A stretch of DNA of 5,842 nt. Source: a virus. Taxonomy: Duplodnaviria > Heunggongvirae > Uroviricota > Caudoviricetes. The notes beneath the pieces are model-generated. The model was not told the origin of the DNA, did no database searches, and was given only the letters and a program-made list of their open reading frames with translations. Below are positions 1 through 5,842 of the stretch, piece by piece (within the stretch, counting starts at the first letter, position 1; each line of letters begins with the position of its first letter). The translations under genes and the position numbers were made by a program. Where the stretch lies: IMG/VR virus record IMGVR_UViG_3300012155_000058, positions 1 to 5,842 of that record. One strand, 5' to 3'.

Positions 1-56
1 TGCCCTATGGCTGGCAGTGAGACATCGCCACTAAATTGAATCATTTTTTGTTGCAT
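1..56 (-). CDS. 5' end of an unidentified gene leaving the window at the left edge (first ~18 codons, MQQKMIQFSGDVSLPAIG...)
   Basis: Minus-strand ATG at 56-54 preceded by GGAGG (complement of 62-66) with 5-nt spacer; frame stays open to position 1. Too short to assess coding properties or product. Confidence 0.3.
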   Translation of the reverse strand, partial: MQQKMIQFSGDVSLPAIG

Positions 57-95: not shown

Positions 96-114
96 GGGCG
101 TGACGCCCTTTTTA
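96..114. terminator. GC hairpin GGGCG-tga-CGCCC followed by TTTTTA; intrinsic-terminator-like element of uncertain assignment
   Basis: Perfect 5-bp GC stem 96-100/104-108, 3-nt loop, T-run 109-113 on plus strand; A-rich run immediately upstream makes it weakly bidirectional. It lies in a divergent intergenic region, so what it terminates is unclear. Confidence 0.3.
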
Positions 115-263
115 TTGGTGCGCAACATATTGATTTTAAATACCTTTATTTTTTAGTGTCCACAATTTGCCCCATTCTAAGCACGACTGGAATCAACTAT
201 TTTTATCTAAAAAAAATGGCTATGCCCGCCTCTACGTCTAATAACTTAATCCAACCTAATGAT

Positions 264-272
264 TGTTATAAT
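264..272 (+). promoter_or_regulatory. Candidate sigma70 extended -10 element (TGtTATAAT) for the DUF4177/YidD-like operon
   Basis: TGTTATAAT at 264-272 matches the TGnTATAAT extended -10 consensus; sits about 70 nt upstream of the ATG at 342 in an AT-rich leader. No good -35 hexamer, consistent with an extended -10 promoter. Prediction by eye only. Confidence 0.3.
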
Positions 273-341
273 TATTTATTGAAATATCATTCCCCTAGTT
301 TACTATTTAAACTCGTTTAATTACAAAAAGGAGTTTAATAC

Positions 342-578
342 ATGTACACCTATAAGATGATACAAGTACCGCCCAATATCTCAGTTAAAGCACGTGACAA
401 CAAAGCAGGAATAGCAGCAGCTTACCTTCAAGACGTGGTAAACGAACAAGCCGCCAACGGCTGGGAGTTTCAGCGGATAGACACTATTGGGATTGAAGAA
501 AAGCCAGGGTGTTTCGGTGGCAGCAAGACAAACTTTACTCAGTACTACGTTATCACTTTTAGAAAAGAAGTGGATTAA
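342..578 (+). CDS. Small DUF4177-like protein (78 aa), function unknown
   Basis: ATG at 342 with AAGGAG at 327-332 (9-nt spacer). Protein begins MYTYKMIQVP, has a central NGWEF and ends YYVITFRKE, which matches my recollection of the DUF4177 pattern. Stop TAA 576-578 overlaps the next start. Confidence 0.7.
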   Translation: MYTYKMIQVPPNISVKARDNKAGIAAAYLQDVVNEQAANGWEFQRIDTIGIEEKPGCFGGSKTNFTQYYVITFRKEVD

Positions 579-793
579 TGTTAAAAGTCTTGAGTATTCG
601 CCTTGTGTTGTTCTACCGAGCACATGCGCCAATGAATATTCGTAACAGATGTCGTCACACCCCATCTTGTTCAAAATACACACTGATTGCATTAAAGCGT
701 TTTGGATTCGTAAAGGGGTGGAAACTAGGTTTAAAGCGGATTTATCGTTGCCGTCCACCGAATGGCGGTATTGACTACCCGCCACACAAGTAA
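578..793 (+). CDS. yidD: YidD-family protein (putative membrane protein insertion efficiency factor paralogue, 71 aa)
   Basis: Clear similarity to E. coli YidD recalled from memory: CRHTPSCSKYTLIALKRFGFVKGWKLGLKRIYRCRPPNGGIDYPP versus [46 protein letters not shown]. Start ATG 578-580 overlaps upstream stop (TAATG). Symbol denotes family membership, not orthology to the rnpA-linked yidD. Confidence 0.85.
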   Translation: MLKVLSIRLVLFYRAHAPMNIRNRCRHTPSCSKYTLIALKRFGFVKGWKLGLKRIYRCRPPNGGIDYPPHK

Positions 794-800
794 TGCCTAA

Positions 801-827
801 GGCCGCCATAGTCGACGGCCTTTCTCA
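801..827 (+). terminator. Possible intrinsic terminator of the DUF4177/YidD-like operon
   Basis: AGGCCG (801-806) / CGGCCT (817-822) 6-bp stem with 10-nt loop, 8 nt after the TAA at 791-793; trailing T-tract is weak (TTCTC). Confidence 0.3.
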
Positions 828-971
828 AGACCAAAGCGTAAATTTCAGTTTCATATTTAACTAACTATATGTTTTTATTGTAATTTTTAAAATCTCTCAA
901 GCATTCCCTCACCCTCAAGCCTTCACGTAAAATAATTTTTTCTTTTATTTTCAATGTAATAAAAACAGGCC

Positions 972-997
972 GATCACATTCGTGATCTTTCTGTTTT
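972..997 (+). terminator. Hairpin GATCAC-attc-GTGATC followed by TTTCTGTTTT; weak terminator-like element
   Basis: 6-bp perfect stem 972-977/982-987 and T-rich tail 988-997. Stem is short and not GC-rich, so low confidence. Confidence 0.2.
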
Positions 998-1001
998 CAA
1001 T

Positions 1002-1105
1002 TAACTGAAAAAGCACGTAATTTTTTCAGTTCCGCAGATCCTTTTTAGATCCTTGCTGCGCGGGCTTTTGCGGCCCTTTATTGCAATATCCAGAACTGAA
1101 AAAAC
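1002..1105. repeat. Three copies of a 10-12 bp motif AACTGAAAAA(A): direct at 1002-1011 and 1094-1105, inverted at 1021-1032
   Basis: TTTTTTCAGTTC (1021-1032) is the exact reverse complement of GAACTGAAAAAA (1094-1105), flanking about 61 bp. AACTGAAAAA at 1002-1011 also pairs with 1022-1031 around a 9-nt loop. Read directly from the sequence. Confidence 0.6.
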
Positions 1106-1257
1106 TTTAACCACGCACAAGCGGCGGGCGTGCGGGTGAGCGCGGTTTTCGTCCCGCTGGCGTTCCGGTGTTCAGATTTTGACCGCGCGCCGTGTATCGA
1201 GCACCGCCAGACCTGCAGGACCGCCATAAATGACCGTGTTTGCCGGAATGAGGACGT

Positions 1258-1279
1258 AAAAAAGCCCGCGCAGGCGGGC
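1258..1279 (-). terminator. Rho-independent terminator of the minus-strand operon
   Basis: On the minus strand: GCCCGC-ctgc-GCGGGC (perfect 6-bp GC stem, 4-nt loop; plus coordinates 1264-1279) followed by TTTTTT (complement of 1258-1263), starting 12 nt downstream of the gene E stop at 1292-1294. Confidence 0.6.
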
Positions 1280-1291
1280 AATGAGAAGGGA

Positions 1292-2938
1292 TTAGCGTTC
1301 TATGATGGGGGATAGCTGCGCATGTAGCGTTGCAGCATTGACAGATTCAGCCGTAAACAATGCGGCGGTTGTAGGTGGGCTACTGGGGCCGCACTGGCAG
1401 TTATGGATGTGCGCAGCGTCAGCCGCTGCTAGCCGTTGAACAACCATCATCAGGTTATCCAACAGCACAAAAATATTTATTGCGTCCGTGCCGGTCCAAC
1501 TCTTTCCGGCTTCAAAATGCTGCAATTCTTTAGCCACGCTACGCCGCAGCTTGCCGACGACTTCAACCAACTGCCCGCCGACAGCGTGCCGGTGATCTCC
1601 TCCTGCTCCGGTGTCAATATCACCTGCAGTCATCTGCTCAATAGCGCCCAGGGTATGCAGGATATGCGACCCGCCAACCTGTAACACATCATCACCCGTT
1701 ACGCTGGCGCGACGCTCCGCGACGTCCGTCTGTTCTTCATCCACCGTCAACTTTCGCACCCGCGCAACTTCGGTCAGTGCCTGATCGGTTTCGCGGCTGA
1801 CATCGCCGCGACTGTTTGTCTTATGCAGAACGCCCGCGCGCGACTGCTGCACCTGCTCACCCGCAGCAACAGCAGGCAGCGTCAACCCCTGCGCCATTAC
1901 CTGGCGGATGTGTGGGCGGTCCGGGCGTGCCTCACTGAATCCCAGTTCGACCAGTGTTCCCGGCGCTGGGTACTGCATCAAGCCGCTATCGCTTCCGCCA
2001 AACCCAACCGGCAACGGCACAGCCTGATAAACAGGGACCGTTTGATCTGGTTTCCCGTCTTCATCAAGTAACTGAACATTGACGGCAAAACGCGGACGGA
2101 ATGGATCTGATATGTCGCTATGGCCGGTCGTGTCGCTGATAGCCTCAACGCGGCCAATTTTTGGCAGGTGTAAACCTGCGGCCAGTTCCGGAAACTCCTT
2201 TTCAGCCTGGCGGCGGAATTGCGATTTTTGCGCCTCGCGGCCTTTGCTGTCTGTTACTGCCCATTTGACTGACATCTGGTCATCAGTCAGATCGATACGC
2301 TTAACCCGCTGGCCGTTAACGACAGCGCCAGGCCGCAGTGACGGCACGCACACGATCCGCATAGTGTCGCCGCCAGTCTGCTGATCAGAAAATCCGGGCG
2401 GTATCTCAACGGGCAATGACGGCCATCGGGATTCCTGCCAACTACCAACAAACACAACACCTTCGGGCAACTGCTGCCAGATATAATCCGGGATAGAAAA
2501 AGCGCGCCCCAGGTTGTTTAGCAACTGATAGCCGCTGCCTGAATGGGTAAAGTTAGGGATCGGCGTATCGGTGTATTTCTGCCCGTCTGGCAGCGCAAAC
2601 GCCAGCCCGCACTGTTCAGTAACCCAGTTACAGACATCCCGTAATGTTGGGTGCTGTATTGAACAGGGCATAGGGCGCGCCAGTATTCCCGTTAATTCAC
2701 GCACCAGGATACGCTGCCAGCCCTTTTCCGCCTGCTGACTACGCTCAACAATACCAGTGAACCAGCGCAGCATTTTTCCGGAATACCCCAGATCCAGCGC
2801 GACCATTTTTCCCTGTAAGTTTTCATCACCGGGGACCGTGACAAAACCCAACCCAGCGCCGGACAACTCCAGCGCCAGATGTACATTAACCGGCGTTACC
2901 GTCTGCGAACCGATATAAAAACGGCTTGTTATCTTCAT
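1292..2938 (-). CDS. Gene E: hypothetical protein, 548 aa, no recognisable domain; last gene of the operon
   Basis: Long ORF; ATG 2938-2936 overlaps gene D stop (ATGA); followed by the terminator at 1258-1279. No Walker A, no reverse-transcriptase YxDD, no obvious transmembrane segments. Confidence 0.8.
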   Translation of the reverse strand: MKITSRFYIGSQTVTPVNVHLALELSGAGLGFVTVPGDENLQGKMVALDLGYSGKMLRWFTGIVERSQQAEKGWQRILVRELTGILARPMPCSIQHPTLRDVCNWVTEQCGLAFALPDGQKYTDTPIPNFTHSGSGYQLLNNLGRAFSIPDYIWQQLPEGVVFVGSWQESRWPSLPVEIPPGFSDQQTGGDTMRIVCVPSLRPGAVVNGQRVKRIDLTDDQMSVKWAVTDSKGREAQKSQFRRQAEKEFPELAAGLHLPKIGRVEAISDTTGHSDISDPFRPRFAVNVQLLDEDGKPDQTVPVYQAVPLPVGFGGSDSGLMQYPAPGTLVELGFSEARPDRPHIRQVMAQGLTLPAVAAGEQVQQSRAGVLHKTNSRGDVSRETDQALTEVARVRKLTVDEEQTDVAERRASVTGDDVLQVGGSHILHTLGAIEQMTAGDIDTGAGGDHRHAVGGQLVEVVGKLRRSVAKELQHFEAGKSWTGTDAINIFVLLDNLMMVVQRLAAADAAHIHNCQCGPSSPPTTAALFTAESVNAATLHAQLSPIIER

Positions 2939-3570
2939 TTGTCTTTGTCCGTTTTGACAGCTGATCCGGCCGTACCGTTTGACGTCGTATCCGCTTTTGA
3001 TTCAGACGGCGACGGGGCCAGCCAATCATCAATTTTTTTCCAGAATTTATCTGATGACGACATTTCAGTGTCTGGCGGTGTATTTTCCCCAGAAGATGCA
3101 CCCGGCGTCGTAATACCTGGCGTTGTCTGCGAAACAACCCCGCCCAGTTTTGAAAATACGTTGGCCTCTTTTTTCTCCGGCACACTGCTGTACTCCCGCA
3201 GAGTGAACGACACGTTCCACGCCCGCAGTGAATCCGATTCCGGCGCGCTCAGACGCCCGGTGAATGTCGCCTGGCGCATGTTGATCGCCGTGGCGGTGAG
3301 ATTAGAAACGCGGTAAACCGTCTGCTTTCCGCCCTCGTCCACCCCTTCCGCCAGTTCAAAAATACGCGTAAGAAATTCAACATTACGAAACGGGATCACG
3401 CCGCTGACGTTTAATTCCTTTGCTTTTATCCCGCCCTCACTTTTCTGCGTTCCCGACGTCTGGCCAGACTGATCTTTGTCTTTGAACGGCAAAACAGCCT
3501 CCACTTTCAGATTCAGCATTTTTACCGTTTCGCCGTTCAGCGTTAAAATTACTGGGTGTCTCGTGCTCAT
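2935..3570 (-). CDS. Gene D: hypothetical protein, 211 aa, with a low-complexity S/T/P/G/K/D-rich C-terminal tail
   Basis: ATG 3570-3568 overlaps gene C stop (ATGA) and is preceded by GAAGGG about 6 nt upstream. An N-terminal region of about 130 aa of ordinary composition is followed by a C-terminal third of compositionally biased sequence. Confidence 0.75.
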   Translation of the reverse strand: MSTRHPVILTLNGETVKMLNLKVEAVLPFKDKDQSGQTSGTQKSEGGIKAKELNVSGVIPFRNVEFLTRIFELAEGVDEGGKQTVYRVSNLTATAINMRQATFTGRLSAPESDSLRAWNVSFTLREYSSVPEKKEANVFSKLGGVVSQTTPGITTPGASSGENTPPDTEMSSSDKFWKKIDDWLAPSPSESKADTTSNGTAGSAVKTDKDK

Positions 3571-4436
3571 ATGCAGCCCTTCAAAAACGACAGATCCGCG
3601 CCAGTGAACAGCACGACAGCAGTAAAAATAAAAGAATGGCCGGGCGGGCTACTGGATTCCAGCGCAGACGCCAGTGACGCACCGCCACCGCTTCCCTTCC
3701 AGGACCAGACCTGCGCGGCGGTTTCGTTCAGCTTGTCAAAGTCACCAGCCAGATCAGAAACAGCCTTTTCACGCAGCTTTACCAGTTCCGCCAATGTATC
3801 GACCGGCGCGCGGGTTTTATGTGCGGCCAGCATCGCCATTTCTGACAACAGCAGGCGGCGCGATTCACGGTGATTTTTTTCGATCAGGTCGCCAGACTCC
3901 GGCCACGCCGGATAGGTCAGCGCGCCGGGGCGTTGCATTTTCTGGGATTCCTTGCCAGCGTGAGCGCGGGCGGTGTTCAGTGCCTGCGTAAATCCGGGGG
4001 CGGGCAAGGTGTCACAGACTTTTGTCAGCTTGCTAATGAAGTCCCCAATCTGACCAGCGCAAACAAGTAAACAAACGGCGTCACCGCCTGCGCCCATTCT
4101 CAGATCTGCACCATCGCGCAATTTTTCGGCCAGCCGTTTGACGGCGTTCGGCGGGCTAAGATAAGTGCCGCTTTCTTCCTCCTTACCCGCGCCAAACGTC
4201 CAGTTATGAACGGCGATTTGCTGCCCGTTCGTTGTCAGTTTATCCAGTTCGACGCGCAGATCGGCAACCTGATCCGCCTGCCCCGCCAATTCTGGCTGCG
4301 GCCACTGCGCCCGCGATTCCAGCGCGCGCAATGCGTTAATGCCAGGGGATGACAGCGACGACAACGCACCGTTTAACGTGTCATGCGGCGTTTTCACTTC
4401 ATCCGGCAGTTTTAACTGTCCATTACTCCACGCCAT
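3567..4436 (-). CDS. Gene C: hypothetical protein, ~289 aa, helix-rich composition with a short hydrophobic C-terminal segment
   Basis: ORF in track is 3567-4529, but the best start is ATG 4436-4434 (MAWSNGQLKLPDEV...) preceded by GGGAGCGGGG. This gives a 25-nt overlap with gene B. An alternative ATG 18 nt upstream cannot be excluded. C-terminus FIFTAVVLFTGA is hydrophobic. Confidence 0.7.
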   Translation of the reverse strand: MAWSNGQLKLPDEVKTPHDTLNGALSSLSSPGINALRALESRAQWPQPELAGQADQVADLRVELDKLTTNGQQIAVHNWTFGAGKEEESGTYLSPPNAVKRLAEKLRDGADLRMGAGGDAVCLLVCAGQIGDFISKLTKVCDTLPAPGFTQALNTARAHAGKESQKMQRPGALTYPAWPESGDLIEKNHRESRRLLLSEMAMLAAHKTRAPVDTLAELVKLREKAVSDLAGDFDKLNETAAQVWSWKGSGGGASLASALESSSPPGHSFIFTAVVLFTGADLSFLKGCI

Positions 4437-4900
4437 GAATAACCCCGCTCCCATTCGCTGGAAACCAGCGCGTGTAACTGGCCGGGCGAATAACGCCAGG
4501 CATCCCGTAACTGCATAAATTCGGCACAAAACTCGCTACAAAACCACTTTTCAGGATTCCCACGGCAAAACAGCAAAAAGCCGATAACCCCGGCGATGTC
4601 GTATTTTTTCCCCGCGTACAGGCGGTAAAAACTGGCGATTTCCTGCGGGCTGGCGCTGATTTCGATCAAGTCCCATTTGTCAGAGGGTAAAGGCATTGTT
4701 TTAGCCCTGACCCCGCCATCACGGAACGATGACGAATAGCAGGTAAAATCCGTGCCGACGTCGTAGCACTGCGGCCCCACGGCGATTTCACAATGTGAAT
4801 ACGGACTGCGGGTAACAAGGCGTGTCACCCAGTCCGCCAGGCTGGCTAGTCCGTTGTGATCGCTGCGGCCACGATAAAACGCAATAAACACCGCGTTCAT
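4412..4900 (-). CDS. Gene B: putative permuted papain-like (NlpC/P60 superfamily, YaeF/YiiX C92-like) hydrolase, ~162 aa
   Basis: ATG 4900-4898 overlaps gene A stop (ATGA); a GTG at 4909 is an alternative start. Motif order is a histidine motif PYSHCEIAV followed by a C-terminal cysteine motif KWFCSEFCAEF, resembling the YSH and YCSE motifs of the circularly permuted YaeF/YiiX family. Assignment is by eye and needs profile confirmation. Confidence 0.7.
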   Translation of the reverse strand: MNAVFIAFYRGRSDHNGLASLADWVTRLVTRSPYSHCEIAVGPQCYDVGTDFTCYSSSFRDGGVRAKTMPLPSDKWDLIEISASPQEIASFYRLYAGKKYDIAGVIGFLLFCRGNPEKWFCSEFCAEFMQLRDAWRYSPGQLHALVSSEWERGYSWRGVMDS

Positions 4901-5499
4901 GGTTGCCACCCCAGGGACCAGTCGTAAGCCTCAACGGCGGCAATATCGCCCAGGGCATCCACTGCCGCAATATGCGCCTGCGCAACGGCAAACAAACGCA
5001 TATCGTGTTCAATGGTCACAAACTCAAACTGTGCGGCGATTGCGTTGGTCAGTTCAATCAGCCCGTTATTTTTGGTTTGCCACATCAGACCGGGCGGAAC
5101 CGCGCCCGCCTGTCCCATTTTTGCCAGCGTCATCTGCTGAATGCGGCTGTTAGCGTCGCTATGGAAGCGATTCCCGTCGATCACGATGTAATCGGCGGTG
5201 ACGGCGTCCCTATGTGCTTTTATATCCTGTTCAACCTGCGCTTTAATCTGCTTCAGCGCGGCGGCAAATGCTGCCGCGTCATAAATCCATTTATCACCGT
5301 CCAGGCGATAATATTCGCCCGGTGGCGGCGTTGTTACGAGCTTTCCAGCAGCGGGATTTACCCAGCAATCACGATCGCGGTAACGCCACTGCACATCCGT
5401 TAATTGCATGACCGTTTCAGGCAGAACAATGTCAAACTGATCGGTGTCCAGCCATGCTAGGACCTTCATTGATTCAGAATCAAAATATACATATTTCAT
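4897..5499 (-). CDS. Gene A: hypothetical protein, 200 aa; possibly a tail-fibre assembly or chaperone-like accessory protein by position
   Basis: ATG 5499-5497 lies 3 nt after the stop of the glycine-rich gene, with GGTGA upstream. Position immediately after a fibre-like gene suggests a chaperone role. It lacks the NPEG...RRAD...GKWMFKDG signature of P2/Mu/lambda-type Tfa proteins, so the functional call is weak. Confidence 0.75.
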   Translation of the reverse strand: MKYVYFDSESMKVLAWLDTDQFDIVLPETVMQLTDVQWRYRDRDCWVNPAAGKLVTTPPPGEYYRLDGDKWIYDAAAFAAALKQIKAQVEQDIKAHRDAVTADYIVIDGNRFHSDANSRIQQMTLAKMGQAGAVPPGLMWQTKNNGLIELTNAIAAQFEFVTIEHDMRLFAVAQAHIAAVDALGDIAAVEAYDWSLGWQP

Positions 5500-5502
5500 T
5501 GA

Positions 5503-5842
5503 TCACCATGACAATTTAACAAAACCCGGCGACCCATTGCCGCCCGGGAAACAGTTCGCACCAGAAGTCCCATAAGCACCAGCCGACCCGCCCGCACCGT
5601 ATCCGGTGCCATTGTGACTACCACCGATAACCCCGCAACCACCATCGCCATATACTGACGACGCTCCATTATTGCCCGCAGTGGCTTTTGTAGTACCAGT
5701 ACCGCCAGTAGTACCACCATAACCACCAGAACCACCGGGTGACGACACTCCCGAAAATGAAGACGCGCCGCCAGCAGTCCCCGAATTACCCTTGGTCATA
5801 TTGCCTGCTGATGACGTGACTACGGTTCCCCCTACCCCCCCA
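5503..5842 (-). CDS. 3' end of a gene encoding a glycine-rich C-terminal domain (tail-fibre or adhesin tip-like); 5' end lies beyond the window
   Basis: Reading frame is open from the window edge (5842) to the TGA at 5505-5503. Translation is Gly/Ser/Thr-rich with interspersed aromatics (GGSGGYGGTTGGTG, GTGYGAGGSAGAYG) and ends GFVKLSW. The internal Met at 5799 has only a weak SD, so a longer protein is more likely. Confidence 0.55.
   Translation of the reverse strand, partial: GGVGGTVVTSSAGNMTKGNSGTAGGASSFSGVSSPGGSGGYGGTTGGTGTTKATAGNNGASSVYGDGGCGVIGGSHNGTGYGAGGSAGAYGTSGANCFPGGNGSPGFVKLSW

Follow-up and report, generated by a model that had tools for sequence, protein, structure and literature searches.

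A sharp GC step in Escherichia coli DNA coincides with a predicted cos site at the int-distal end of an HP1-like prophage

Organization of the window

The window (the whole 5,842-nucleotide stretch of DNA analysed here) is E. coli DNA and very probably crosses the int-distal end of a single HP1-like prophage of the Peduoviridae, which sits between mipA and yeaE, with a sharp GC step lying on a predicted cos site and a small gene cassette held in the AT-rich arm beside it. Such a layout is the ordinary, already-understood architecture of HP1-like phages. The prophage is 33.6 kb in size and its int-distal end enters the window at approximately position 110, whereas positions 1–109 comprise the start of yeaE and the mipA terminator. 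The host boundary and the genes of the window were as follows.

1–56, minus strand: 5′ end of yeaE, the host methylglyoxal reductase gene (RefSeq annotation, NZ_CP070920.1)
90–109: att core AAAACAGGGCGTGACGCCCT, a 20-nt direct repeat forming the int-distal junction (attR by convention)
342–578, plus strand: DUF4177-like small protein of 78 aa, homologue of HP1 orf3 (phrog_12383, E = 1e-37; PF13783, E = 5.9e-5)
578–793, plus strand: YidD-family protein of 71 aa, homologue of HP1 orf2 (PF01809, E = 1.8e-18; TIGR00278)
1292–2938, minus strand: baseplate protein, homologue of HP1 orf35 and K139 orf39, last gene of the late operon (phrog_2258, E = 5e-206)
2935–3570, minus strand: HP1 ORF34-type baseplate complex protein (PF25759, E = 2.9e-53)
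3567–4436, minus strand: late-operon gene (phrog_1677)
4412–4900, minus strand: late-operon gene (phrog_1128)
4897–5469, minus strand: late-operon gene, DUF4376, tail-fibre associated (annotation and family match)
5503–5842, minus strand: 3′ part of a tail-collar fibre gene, cut by the end of the window (RefSeq annotation)

The minus-strand genes represented an HP1-type tail/baseplate set ending in orf34–orf35, as in HP1-like prophages, and the orf35 homologue showed 35–48% identity over its full length to proteins of phiO18P, HP1, HP2, K139, F108, ESSI-2, and others by tblastn. The first-pass annotation had described two operons with convergent 3′ ends, and this description was borne out: the plus-strand pair (342–793) was followed by hairpins at 799–822 and 962–997, and the minus-strand gene ending at 1292 was followed by a terminator at 1264–1279, at which position a hairpin was kept in all relatives aligned. 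A scan of genome contigs for related loci succeeded with an alignment as query, the single baseplate protein alone having found nothing.

The GC step and its occurrence across HP1-like prophages

The switch from AT-rich to GC-rich DNA reported at about 1020–1100 was real, the GC content being 0.382 in 113–1100 and 0.554 in 1101–5842. With 300-nt flanks the step reached 0.263 at approximately 1120, more than at any other point of the 45.8-kb locus that surrounds the window, and with 200-nt flanks the greatest drop, 0.30, fell at approximately 1027; the transition zone was therefore placed at 1020–1120. On the AT-rich side, GC was 0.297 in 113–341, 0.435 in each of the two small genes, and 0.365 in the non-coding 794–1100, and on the other side it rose to 0.602 in the non-coding 1101–1291. 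Taking 18 flanking host genes as the reference (GC 0.523 ± 0.029, GC3 0.543 ± 0.043), we found the tail genes to be normal (GC z −0.2 to +1.8; codon-usage z −0.7), with those adjoining the cassette at GC 0.52–0.58. Only the AT-rich side departed from this reference, the two small genes being atypical (GC z −3.0; GC3 z −2.0 and −2.9; codon-usage z −2.2). Several essential genes of the same prophage in the tail sheath and tube region, at GC 0.42–0.46, were as AT-rich as the cassette, which therefore cannot be called foreign from its composition alone.

A drop in GC across cos was found in HP1 (0.39 to 0.26), K139 (0.59 to 0.38), and phiO18P (0.62 to 0.45), and when 63 HP1-like prophages, none of which carries the cassette, were aligned on cos, the step was positive in 59. 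Their mean GC was 0.60 in the 50 nt before the cos midpoint, 0.34 just after it, and 0.29–0.44 beyond, with one peak of 0.55 at +50 to +100, and the GC profile of the window around its own predicted cos had the same shape. The greatest drop after the baseplate gene had a median of 0.175 versus 0.095 in a control taken from the interior of the tail genes (p = 6e-18), and after removal of the cassette in silico (342–830) the GC content at cos still fell from about 0.60 to about 0.34. Since the drop is family-wide and occurs also where there is no cassette, the step alone is no sign of foreign origin.

A different explanation of the step, which we consider improbable, would ascribe it mainly to a low-GC cassette recently acquired from a Pasteurellaceae-type phage such as HP1, with the coincidence with cos being incidental. 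In all the phage backgrounds examined the cassette stays at approximately 40–49% GC, also where the late genes are at 55–59%; HP1 has homologues of both genes in an orf2–orf3 region of 0.37 GC; and the low synonymous divergence from the phage of strain N1420, 0.04 for the yidD-like gene and 0.42 for the DUF4177-like gene against 1.51 for the adjacent baseplate gene, speaks for a recent exchange. However, phages that lack the cassette also have the step at cos, the lowest GC in the window lies in the non-coding arm (0.30 and 0.365) and not in the genes, and the arm beside cos carries motifs conserved in the family. Import of the cassette would account for how wide the AT-rich block is (about 1 kb versus 0.25–0.5 kb) but not for the position of its edge.

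The predicted cos site

The non-coding features between the att core and the late operon were as follows.

113–341, plus strand: AT-rich attP-arm DNA (GC 0.30) with promoter-like hexamers, a match to the IHF consensus, and a ribosome-binding site
799–822, plus strand: terminator-like hairpin after the cassette with a weak U tail (−11.3 kcal/mol, z −2.05)
962–997: strong palindromic hairpin AAAACAGG..GATCACATTCGTGATC..CTGTTTT that includes two GATC sites, terminator-like on both strands (−13.9 kcal/mol, z −4.27, 0/200 shuffles)
1003–1102: repeat element of the cos left arm, with three copies of TTTTCAGTT, a AGATCCTT direct repeat, and a GC hairpin
1083–1163, minus strand: predicted cos (nhmmer profile match)
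1123–1140: predicted cohesive-end sequence, plus strand GGCGGGCGTGCGGGTGAG, minus strand CTCACCCGCACGCCCGCC
1165–1261: GC-rich, non-coding spacer on the cosR side, poorly conserved (50% identical columns with indels versus the N1420 prophage)
1264–1279, minus strand: rho-independent terminator of the late tail operon, GCCCGCCTGCGCGGGC plus TTTTTT (−12.5 kcal/mol, z −3.3)

A blastn search (word 11) of 940–1291 against phages returned short terminator-hairpin matches only, with no likeness to known cos sites; this similarity lies below the reach of BLAST, and a profile was therefore needed. Alignment of the genome ends of phiO18P (cosL and cosR annotated), HP1 (cosL annotated), K139, ESSI-2, and SW5 gave a common core of GCGCTCAnCCGC..CCCGCC followed by TTTTTTCAG, and an nhmmer profile built solely from these terminal junctions had a single match in a 60-kb region, at 1083–1163 of the window (E = 2e-6, 22.7 bits; next best, 0.33). 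Of 80 related prophages, 67 had exactly one match to the same profile, downstream of the baseplate gene and on the expected strand; the distance after the baseplate stop codon was 129 nt in the window and a median of 193 nt in the relatives. The assignment of this match as the cos of the prophage is a prediction from motif homology, and the cut positions given above were extrapolated from the annotated cos of phiO18P and the terminal repeat of ESSI-2, so that the exact overhang is putative. ORFs at 1078–1281 and 1130–1315, which overlap this region, were rejected as genes, having no family matches, no annotation, and no conserved frame.

The cos cores of phiO18P of Aeromonas (CGCGCTCATCCGCTCCCGCC / TGCGGG) and ESSI-2 of Cronobacter (GGCACTACACCGCACCCGCC / TGCAAG) were very similar to that of the window (GCGCTCACCCGCACGCCCGCC / GCTTGTG). 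In these two phages and in SW5 of Salmonella, cos lies 175–215 nt past the orf35 homologue, and after it come T-rich TTTTGCA/TTTTCAG motifs together with GGATC repeats; however, their baseplate proteins were only 42–47% identical to that of the window, and their arms differ from it in content, the cos-to-attP arm of phiO18P being about 0.5 kb long with no annotated gene and no cassette, that of ESSI-2 being without an annotated CDS, and that of SW5 holding two small hypothetical ORFs. HP1 (Hpunavirus, the "HP1-like viruses" of Peduoviridae) shares with the window its last two late genes, orf34 and orf35, a terminator right after orf35, then CACGG-type repeats and cos approximately 150–200 nt past the stop codon, as well as the TTTTTTCAGTT motif, an AT-rich arm toward attP, and the DUF4177-like/YidD-like pair as orf3/orf2. 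It differs in that the pair stands upstream of int, whereas in the window it occupies the interval from attP to cos, on the downstream side of attP; the proteins were only 40–63% identical, host and att site are other ones, and the cohesive-end sequence is AT-richer and aligned poorly with the core in the window.

The same ~95-nt cos core (1070–1164 of the window) was the sole segment in common with a P4-like satellite-type element in four E. coli genomes; strain PapRG-04-4 carries such an element. This element of about 12 kb encodes an integrase, an Icd-like protein, a derepression protein, a DUF927 primase-like protein, and an ogr/Delta-like protein. P4 shares cos with its helper P2, and the element shares its cos core with the prophage in the same manner. 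It is a separate element in other genomes, outside the window, and a helper role for the prophage is putative. With their cos core copied in this way, HP1-type coliphages may have dedicated satellites.

We regard it as very unlikely that the 1083–1163 motif is not a functional cos, in which case the step would reflect no more than the change from coding to non-coding DNA where a defective prophage ends, its packaging site having been lost or being located elsewhere. The modest profile score of a cos predicted from sequence, and the position of the P2 cos next to the portal gene, would agree with such an account, but it conflicts with a match that is unique in 60 kb, that recurs at this position in 67 of the 80 related prophages, that corresponds to the annotated or record-terminal ends of five phages, and that is the one segment shared with the satellite-type element. 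Moreover, HP1-type cos sites adjoin attP and not the portal gene (PMC2771037). The predicted cos, approximately 1 kb from att, thus stands beside attP, the arrangement of HP1-like prophages.

Limits of the prophage and its host setting

The limits of the prophage were fixed by its att repeats. The att core at 90–109, which contains the mipA terminator hairpin (95–109), recurred as an identical 20-nt copy at the opposite boundary of the prophage (L002 6606–6625), where a tyrosine integrase gene adjoins mipA, and the precise empty site in O157 had one att copy and lacked both blocks together. In RefSeq, an annotated P2/HP1-type prophage spans from the integrase beside mipA to the end of the element in the window; portal, large terminase, GPO scaffold, P2-family capsid, gpM, and head completion genes are present in order as a P2-family head/packaging module under the RefSeq annotation as it stands, and also in the N1420 relative. 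The search for att-like repeats that had been proposed yielded a direct repeat, though one enclosing both blocks and not separating them. Since one pair of att repeats encloses the element, both compositional blocks lie inside one prophage.

The yeaE stretch was matched in all 5426 E. coli genomes searched, and the remainder of the window in 8 only. Limits, orientation, and probable packaging site are now fixed for an HP1-like prophage that is rare in the species (8/5426 complete genomes). A tRNA scan of the window found none, which shows that the att site here is not a tRNA; a relative at another att site, the tRNA-Leu beside yecA, carries both blocks together. Whole-window megablast at near-identity against 50,697 phage records gave no match. 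Rfam at a permissive E-value gave a sub-threshold STnc420 match over the mipA terminator as its sole match, with no known RNA in 794–1291.

The blocks had been suggested to differ in origin, as a prophage end abutting a separate islet; the prophage end and the separate history of the AT-rich block were supported (about 92% identity to the N1420 prophage versus 77–83%, see below), but the islet was not. That the AT-rich block is a separate islet or independent mobile element, the step being the junction of two insertions, is extremely unlikely: its atypical composition (GC z about −3) and a divergence history unlike that of the tail genes would fit, but a single att pair surrounds both blocks, the empty site lacks both, the phage at tRNA-Leu carries both, as do IMG/VR prophage contigs ending with the cassette pair, neither integrase, transposase, nor terminal repeats flank 113–1100, and the cos profile match spans the supposed junction. 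Because the step lies inside one element, composition-based island calls would mis-split the prophage; a sharp GC step may mark a cos/attP arm rather than the junction of two acquired islands.

The AT-rich arm and the proposed arrangement

With a single HP1-like prophage as the preferred reading, the excised genome in the orientation of the window would run int, attP, DUF4177-like gene, YidD-like gene, terminators, and cos, with the end of the late tail operon converging on cos from the other side. The step would then fall on the point at which terminase cuts and the ends of virion DNA rejoin. To the right of cos would lie the GC-rich cohesive-end sequence and the last late (baseplate) genes of host-like composition, and to the left the AT-rich cos-to-attP arm, which in HP1-like phages is mostly non-coding and dense with short repeats (TTTTCAGTT, GGATC) that are presumably accessory sites for packaging and integration. 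Here the arm would also hold a two-gene accessory cassette (moron), which integration at attP would leave outermost in the prophage, directed inward so that it converges on the tail operon; this position would produce the picture of two convergent operons with a sharp GC boundary.

The repeat element with which the step had been said to coincide was confirmed. All three copies of TTTTCAGTT in the window lie in 1003–1102 (1003–1011 minus, 1023–1031 plus, and 1094–1102 minus), where 0.09 were expected and three were reached in 0/200 shuffles; the AGATCCTT repeat occupies 1036–1043 and 1047–1054, and a GC hairpin 1062–1076. Motifs TTTTTTCAGTT and (A)GGATC were also found on the cosL side of HP1, K139, ESSI-2, and phiO18P and were enriched 2.5–4-fold in the cos–attP arm across 71 HP1-like prophages; terminase or a host factor may bind these repeats.

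Next to attP, the arm had promoter-like hexamers at 263–290 and 279–306, which match the consensus and may act as promoters, and the RBS AAGGAG at 328–333. The one match to the IHF consensus, at 123–135 on the minus strand, was not significant alone (36/200 shuffles). In the N1420 relative, which has another att site, 113–341 was unrelated (40.8% identical columns), with no conservation upstream of the RBS. An ORF at 156–320 was rejected as a gene, with no family matches and no conserved frame. A type I toxin among the small ORFs of 794–1291, considered because P88 has a hok-like gene in the corresponding position, was likewise rejected, having neither homology to the P88 region nor an Rfam match.

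The DUF4177-like/YidD-like cassette

The stop codon of the DUF4177-like gene overlaps the start codon of the YidD-like gene (TAATG), making a translationally coupled pair. The YidD-like protein scored 66.5 bits with PF01809 (cut-off 27; profile positions 3–66 of 67) and 69.8 bits with TIGR00278 (cut-off 40), which places it in the YidD family. The first protein scored 23.6 bits with PF13783 (DUF4177; positions 1–43 of 65), below the gathering cut-off of 25, and was therefore named DUF4177-like; RefSeq labels some of its homologues as DUF4177 domain-containing. The DUF4177-like protein showed 63% amino acid identity to HP1 orf3 and 82% to its homologue in phage P88, and the YidD-like protein 50% to HP1 orf2 and 78% to P88. 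Identity of the latter to enterobacterial chromosomal yidD was approximately 39%, indicating no recent capture from the host.

Homologous pairs were found in HP1, in the order cI-orf4-orf3-orf2-orf1-int, in P88, and in P2-like prophages beside ogr and gpD, and in all 15 IMG/VR loci, in HP1-type and P2-type prophages, the YidD-like gene was paired with a DUF4177-like gene. P88 (Xuanwuvirus) and other P2-like prophages have the same pair (58–85% amino acid identity for the DUF4177-like and 55–77% for the YidD-like protein), likewise outermost and convergent with the end of the late genes. They differ from the window in their P2-type backbone, in which ogr and gpD adjoin the cassette and cos is expected close to the portal gene, and in lacking the AT-rich repeat arm (794–1165), the homology being confined to the coding part. 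None of the 80 HP1-like loci had the cassette in the 4.5 kb that follow the baseplate gene, and it was also missing from the cos–attP site of phiO18P, K139, and ESSI-2; it is thus dispensable, occurring in some related phages only, as morons do. Its distinct composition and history (GC 0.435 and low synonymous divergence) are also those of a moron, although some essential phage genes are equally AT-rich.

Small and non-essential, the P2 genes old, tin, and Z-fun lie near int/att where modules meet and occur in some relatives only. The K139 glo gene, annotated for phage exclusion, is a moron of the same sort and occupies the cI–int slot in which HP1 keeps orf2/orf3, but the cassette has no sequence similarity to glo and is not known to have any to the P2 genes. 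PADLOC on six proteins gave no defence-system matches, a PDB sequence search with both small proteins gave nothing usable, and the literature held no functional link for DUF4177, for YidD with prophages, or for the pair.

Because the HP1 homologues sit in the cI–int operon, the cassette is probably expressed in lysogeny, and it probably has a membrane-directed accessory function. Here it stands just downstream of attP; integration would uncouple it from the int transcript, and its expression could depend on the integration state. Tentatively, the two genes may form an uncharacterised accessory module of temperate Peduoviridae, mobile between phages of HP1 and P2 type and always settling beside int/attP, possibly with a membrane-level lysogen phenotype, for example superinfection exclusion or a change in the way YidC inserts membrane proteins. 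Small, mobile, conserved, and under purifying selection, the cassette is a candidate for a lysogenic-conversion or exclusion function, and nothing marks it as unusual.

Compared with the sister prophage in strain N1420, 326–1164 was approximately 92% identical and the rest of the genome 77–83%; the best 400-nt stretch in the whole-phage comparison was 413–812, at 98%. Judged from this divergence, the cassette is a mobile module with a separate recent history. A few other patches of the same prophage pair were also 93–96% identical, so that the cassette is not the sole mosaic piece.

Prophage limits and gene content

Positions 1 to about 115 of the window, which cover the beginning of yeaE together with its upstream DNA, were present by megablast in all 5426 complete E. 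coli genomes, and the sequence beyond about 115 in just 8 of the 5426. The top megablast match was E. coli 40EC (NZ_CP070920.1, 2084443–2090284, reverse strand), whose annotation places the window at one end of a prophage of about 33.6 kb between mipA and yeaE. From the window end, the annotated order is tail-fibre and baseplate genes, a P2-family head/packaging module, a replication endonuclease, the lysogeny region, and an integrase adjoining mipA. When both junctions were aligned with the uninterrupted mipA–yeaE site of O157, a 20-nt direct repeat, AAAACAGGGCGTGACGCCCT, was found at 90–109, where the mipA terminator hairpin lies within it, and at the integrase end, with one copy in the empty O157 site. 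Since the repeat is at both ends and single in the empty site, the DNA from about 110 to the window end, including both the AT-rich left side (113–1100) and the GC-rich right side (1101–5842), is one prophage. A sub-threshold Rfam match to the Salmonella sRNA STnc420 at 71–120 (score 22.7 bits, gathering threshold 70, E = 0.59), overlapping the mipA terminator and the att core, is probably due to chance.

Main genes of the window
342–578, plus strand: DUF4177-like gene on the AT-rich side (slightly under the Pfam cut-off; phrog_12383, E = 1e-37)
578–793, plus strand: clear YidD family gene on the AT-rich side (PF01809 and TIGR00278, both above cut-offs)
1292–2938, minus strand: baseplate protein, homologue of HP1 orf35 and K139 orf39 (phrog_2258, E = 5e-206)
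2935–3570, minus strand: HP1_ORF34 protein (PF25759, E = 3e-53)

The baseplate protein showed 35–48% identity over its full length to those of HP1, HP2, K139, phiO18P, and ESSI-2. The two small genes form a translationally coupled pair, here called the cassette. In the late operon, a 162-aa protein (4412–4900, minus strand) matched only the first half of phrog_1128 (positions 22–177 of 381), annotated as 'enoyl-CoA hydratase/carnithine racemase-like' in the moron category, and had no match in Pfam or NCBIfam.

Composition step and convergent ends

The first-pass annotation had described an AT-rich block and a GC-rich block meeting at a repeat element and at the convergent 3' ends of two operons, and these observations held. 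GC content was 0.382 at 113–1100 versus 0.554 at 1101–5842; the step at about 1120 (0.263 with 300-nt flanks) was the largest in the 45.8-kb locus, and the maximum drop measured with 200-nt flanks was 0.30, at about 1027. The convergent ends carry hairpins, and TTTTCAGTT occurs three times within 1003–1102, a number reached in none of 200 shuffles. A perfect 14-nt inverted repeat, CTGCGCGGGCTTTT / AAAAGCCCGCGCAG, at 1056–1069 and 1260–1273 flanks the predicted cos, each copy being half of a terminator-like hairpin, and the two may shield cos against transcription entering from either side.

A comparison of GC and codon usage with 18 flanking host genes showed nothing remarkable in the tail genes (GC z −0.2 to +1.8, codon-usage z −0.7), whereas the GC of the two small genes lay about 3 SD, and their GC3 2–3 SD, below the host values. 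The strongest AT-richness was non-coding (GC 0.297 at 113–341 and 0.365 at 794–1100), and several essential genes of the phage equal the two small genes in AT-richness. Outside the window, a hypothetical gene of the same prophage between ogr and sfsB (L001 42183–42668; GC 0.31, GC3 0.24) deviated far more than the cassette (z about −7 relative to host genes) and probably represents additional cargo.

Prediction of the cos site

In HP1-like phages, cos adjoins attP after the last tail gene, whereas that of P2 is beside the portal gene (PMC2771037). The linear records of phiO18P, HP1, K139, ESSI-2, and SW5 end 175–215 nt past the orf35 homologue, and cos is annotated in those of phiO18P (cosL/cosR) and HP1 (cosL). 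The right and left ends of these five phages were joined and aligned with the minus strand of the window, and the alignment showed a common layout: a terminator hairpin, CACGG-type repeats, a core GCGCTCAnCCGC..CCCGCC, TTTTTTCAG(TT), GGATC repeats, and a second TTTCAGTTAATTG. A profile HMM built from the five reference phages only gave a single match on both strands of 60 kb (prophage and flanks), at 1083–1163 (E = 2e-6; next best 0.33). The 16-nt overhang of phiO18P and the ESSI-2 terminal repeat, taken as analogues, place the predicted cohesive end at 1123–1140, the right-hand edge of the 1020–1120 GC transition zone; its exact ends and cut sites we infer.

Four E. coli genomes had only window 1070–1164 in common with the query 326–1165, at 80% identity with an almost identical core. 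The segment, present also in NZ_CP148331.1 (L118 3501–3595), lies inside an element of about 12 kb (NZ_CP049201.1, 4690281–4702001) and matched the cos profile at E~9e-7. Genes for an integrase and a P2-family capsid occur in the element alongside those for Icd-like, 'derepression', DUF927 primase-like and ogr/Delta-like proteins, a set typical of a P4-type satellite; phd/yoeB is there as well. By comparison with P4 and P2, retention of this piece alone in a satellite is the expectation for a packaging site. The element lends independent support to a cos at 1083–1163, and the findings suggest a satellite packaged by HP1-type coliphages.

The step across HP1-like relatives

Scanning GTDB species representatives with a baseplate-protein alignment yielded 80 HP1-like prophage ends from Aeromonas, Serratia, Yersinia, Xenorhabdus, Photorhabdus, Pasteurellaceae, and others. 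In 67 of the 80, the cos profile gave exactly one match; every match lay past the baseplate gene and in the predicted orientation, with a median distance of 193 nt from the stop. In loci aligned on the match, mean GC ran at 0.52–0.60 ahead of it, with 0.60 over the final 50 nt, fell to 0.34 directly after, and was 0.29–0.44 further on except for a lone peak of 0.55 between +50 and +100. A positive step was seen in 59 of 63 cos-aligned loci, and the window had the same profile. This GC-rich peak is at the position equivalent to an inverted-repeat copy of the window. The largest drop past the baseplate gene had a median of 0.175 versus 0.095 in the tail-gene-internal control (p = 6e-18); the 0.30 of the window is at the top of the family range, and the drops at cos were 0.13 in HP1, 0.21 in K139, and 0.17 in phiO18P. 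GGATC and TTTCAG were enriched 2.5–4-fold in the arm, the AT-rich DNA between cos and attP (71 loci). The DUF4177-like/YidD-like pair was found within 4.5 kb in none of the 80 loci; the step is therefore independent of the cassette. The window prophage, itself new and rare, belongs to a known kind of phage and has the architecture usual for its family.

In about 18 of the 67 prophages, the cos match was 0.7–1.9 kb past the baseplate stop instead of about 190 nt (L040, L045, L046, L048, L050, L060, L063, L064, L070, L073, L076, L077, L079, L081, L083, L094, L099, and L110), suggesting a second slot for cargo, located between cos and the end of the tail genes.

History and mobility of the cassette

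A sister prophage in strain N1420, integrated at tRNA-Leu next to yecA, has the window order of cassette, arm, cos, and baseplate gene. The two phages were 77–83% identical genome-wide and about 92% over 326–1164, and 413–812 (98%) was the best 400-nt stretch of the entire comparison; the attP arm at 113–325 was unrelated, and 1165–1261 was about 50% identical. The adjacent baseplate gene had a synonymous divergence of 1.51, against 0.42 in the DUF4177-like gene and 0.04 in the yidD-like gene, with dN/dS at 0.03–0.15. The low values of the cassette point to recent exchange rather than stronger constraint alone. By tblastn, the pair corresponds to orf3 and orf2 of HP1 (order cI-orf4-orf3-orf2-orf1-int) and also occurs in the P2-like coliphage P88. 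In IMG/VR, the genes were paired in 15 of 15 loci as the outermost genes of predicted prophages, both on P2-type backbones, where they adjoin ogr and gpD, and on HP1-type backbones, some of which add an AT-rich gene of 309 aa. A further 20 E. coli genomes carried the coding part of the cassette only (~71.5% identity). The cassette is thus an accessory module that is mobile and has a history of its own. The different origins first proposed for the two blocks stand as far as this separate recent history; both blocks are inside one prophage, and the cassette passes from phage to phage rather than forming the adjoining islet that had been suggested.

The 309-aa ORF (GC 0.30; L018 724–1653 in UViG_2706794640_000002, also L020 and L021) lies between cassette and cos in ESSI-2-like prophages; the cos–attP arm therefore gathers further AT-rich cargo. 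Six genomes carry a copy of 326–1165 at 98.5% identity, all with a 53-aa PGAP yidD-like annotation that starts later than the 71-aa gene (L007 2132–2293, strain LZSFT34). The sole difference from the window in this gene is A-to-T at 628, and the shorter call is an annotation inconsistency, not a disruption.

The cassette proteins had no defence or functional link in PADLOC, PDB, or the literature. A lysogeny-associated, membrane-directed role seems most likely, because in HP1 the homologues belong to the cI-int operon and occupy the slot that in K139 is taken by the exclusion gene glo.

Proposed arrangement

The excised genome would read int, attP, DUF4177-like gene, YidD-like gene, terminators, and cos, with the late tail operon converging from the other side. 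Integration would cut this order at attP, placing the cassette at the far prophage end beside yeaE, so that it and the tail operon face each other with cos between them. Cohesive-end sequence and ordinary late genes would then make up the GC-rich side, and the AT-rich side would be a repeat-laden cos/attP arm widened in this phage by the ~0.5-kb cassette. Terminase or IHF may bind the arm repeats, and promoter-like sites at 263–306 could drive cassette expression. Only two threads are mildly novel, namely the mobile gene pair, as yet uncharacterised, and the copy of the cos core in a satellite-type element.
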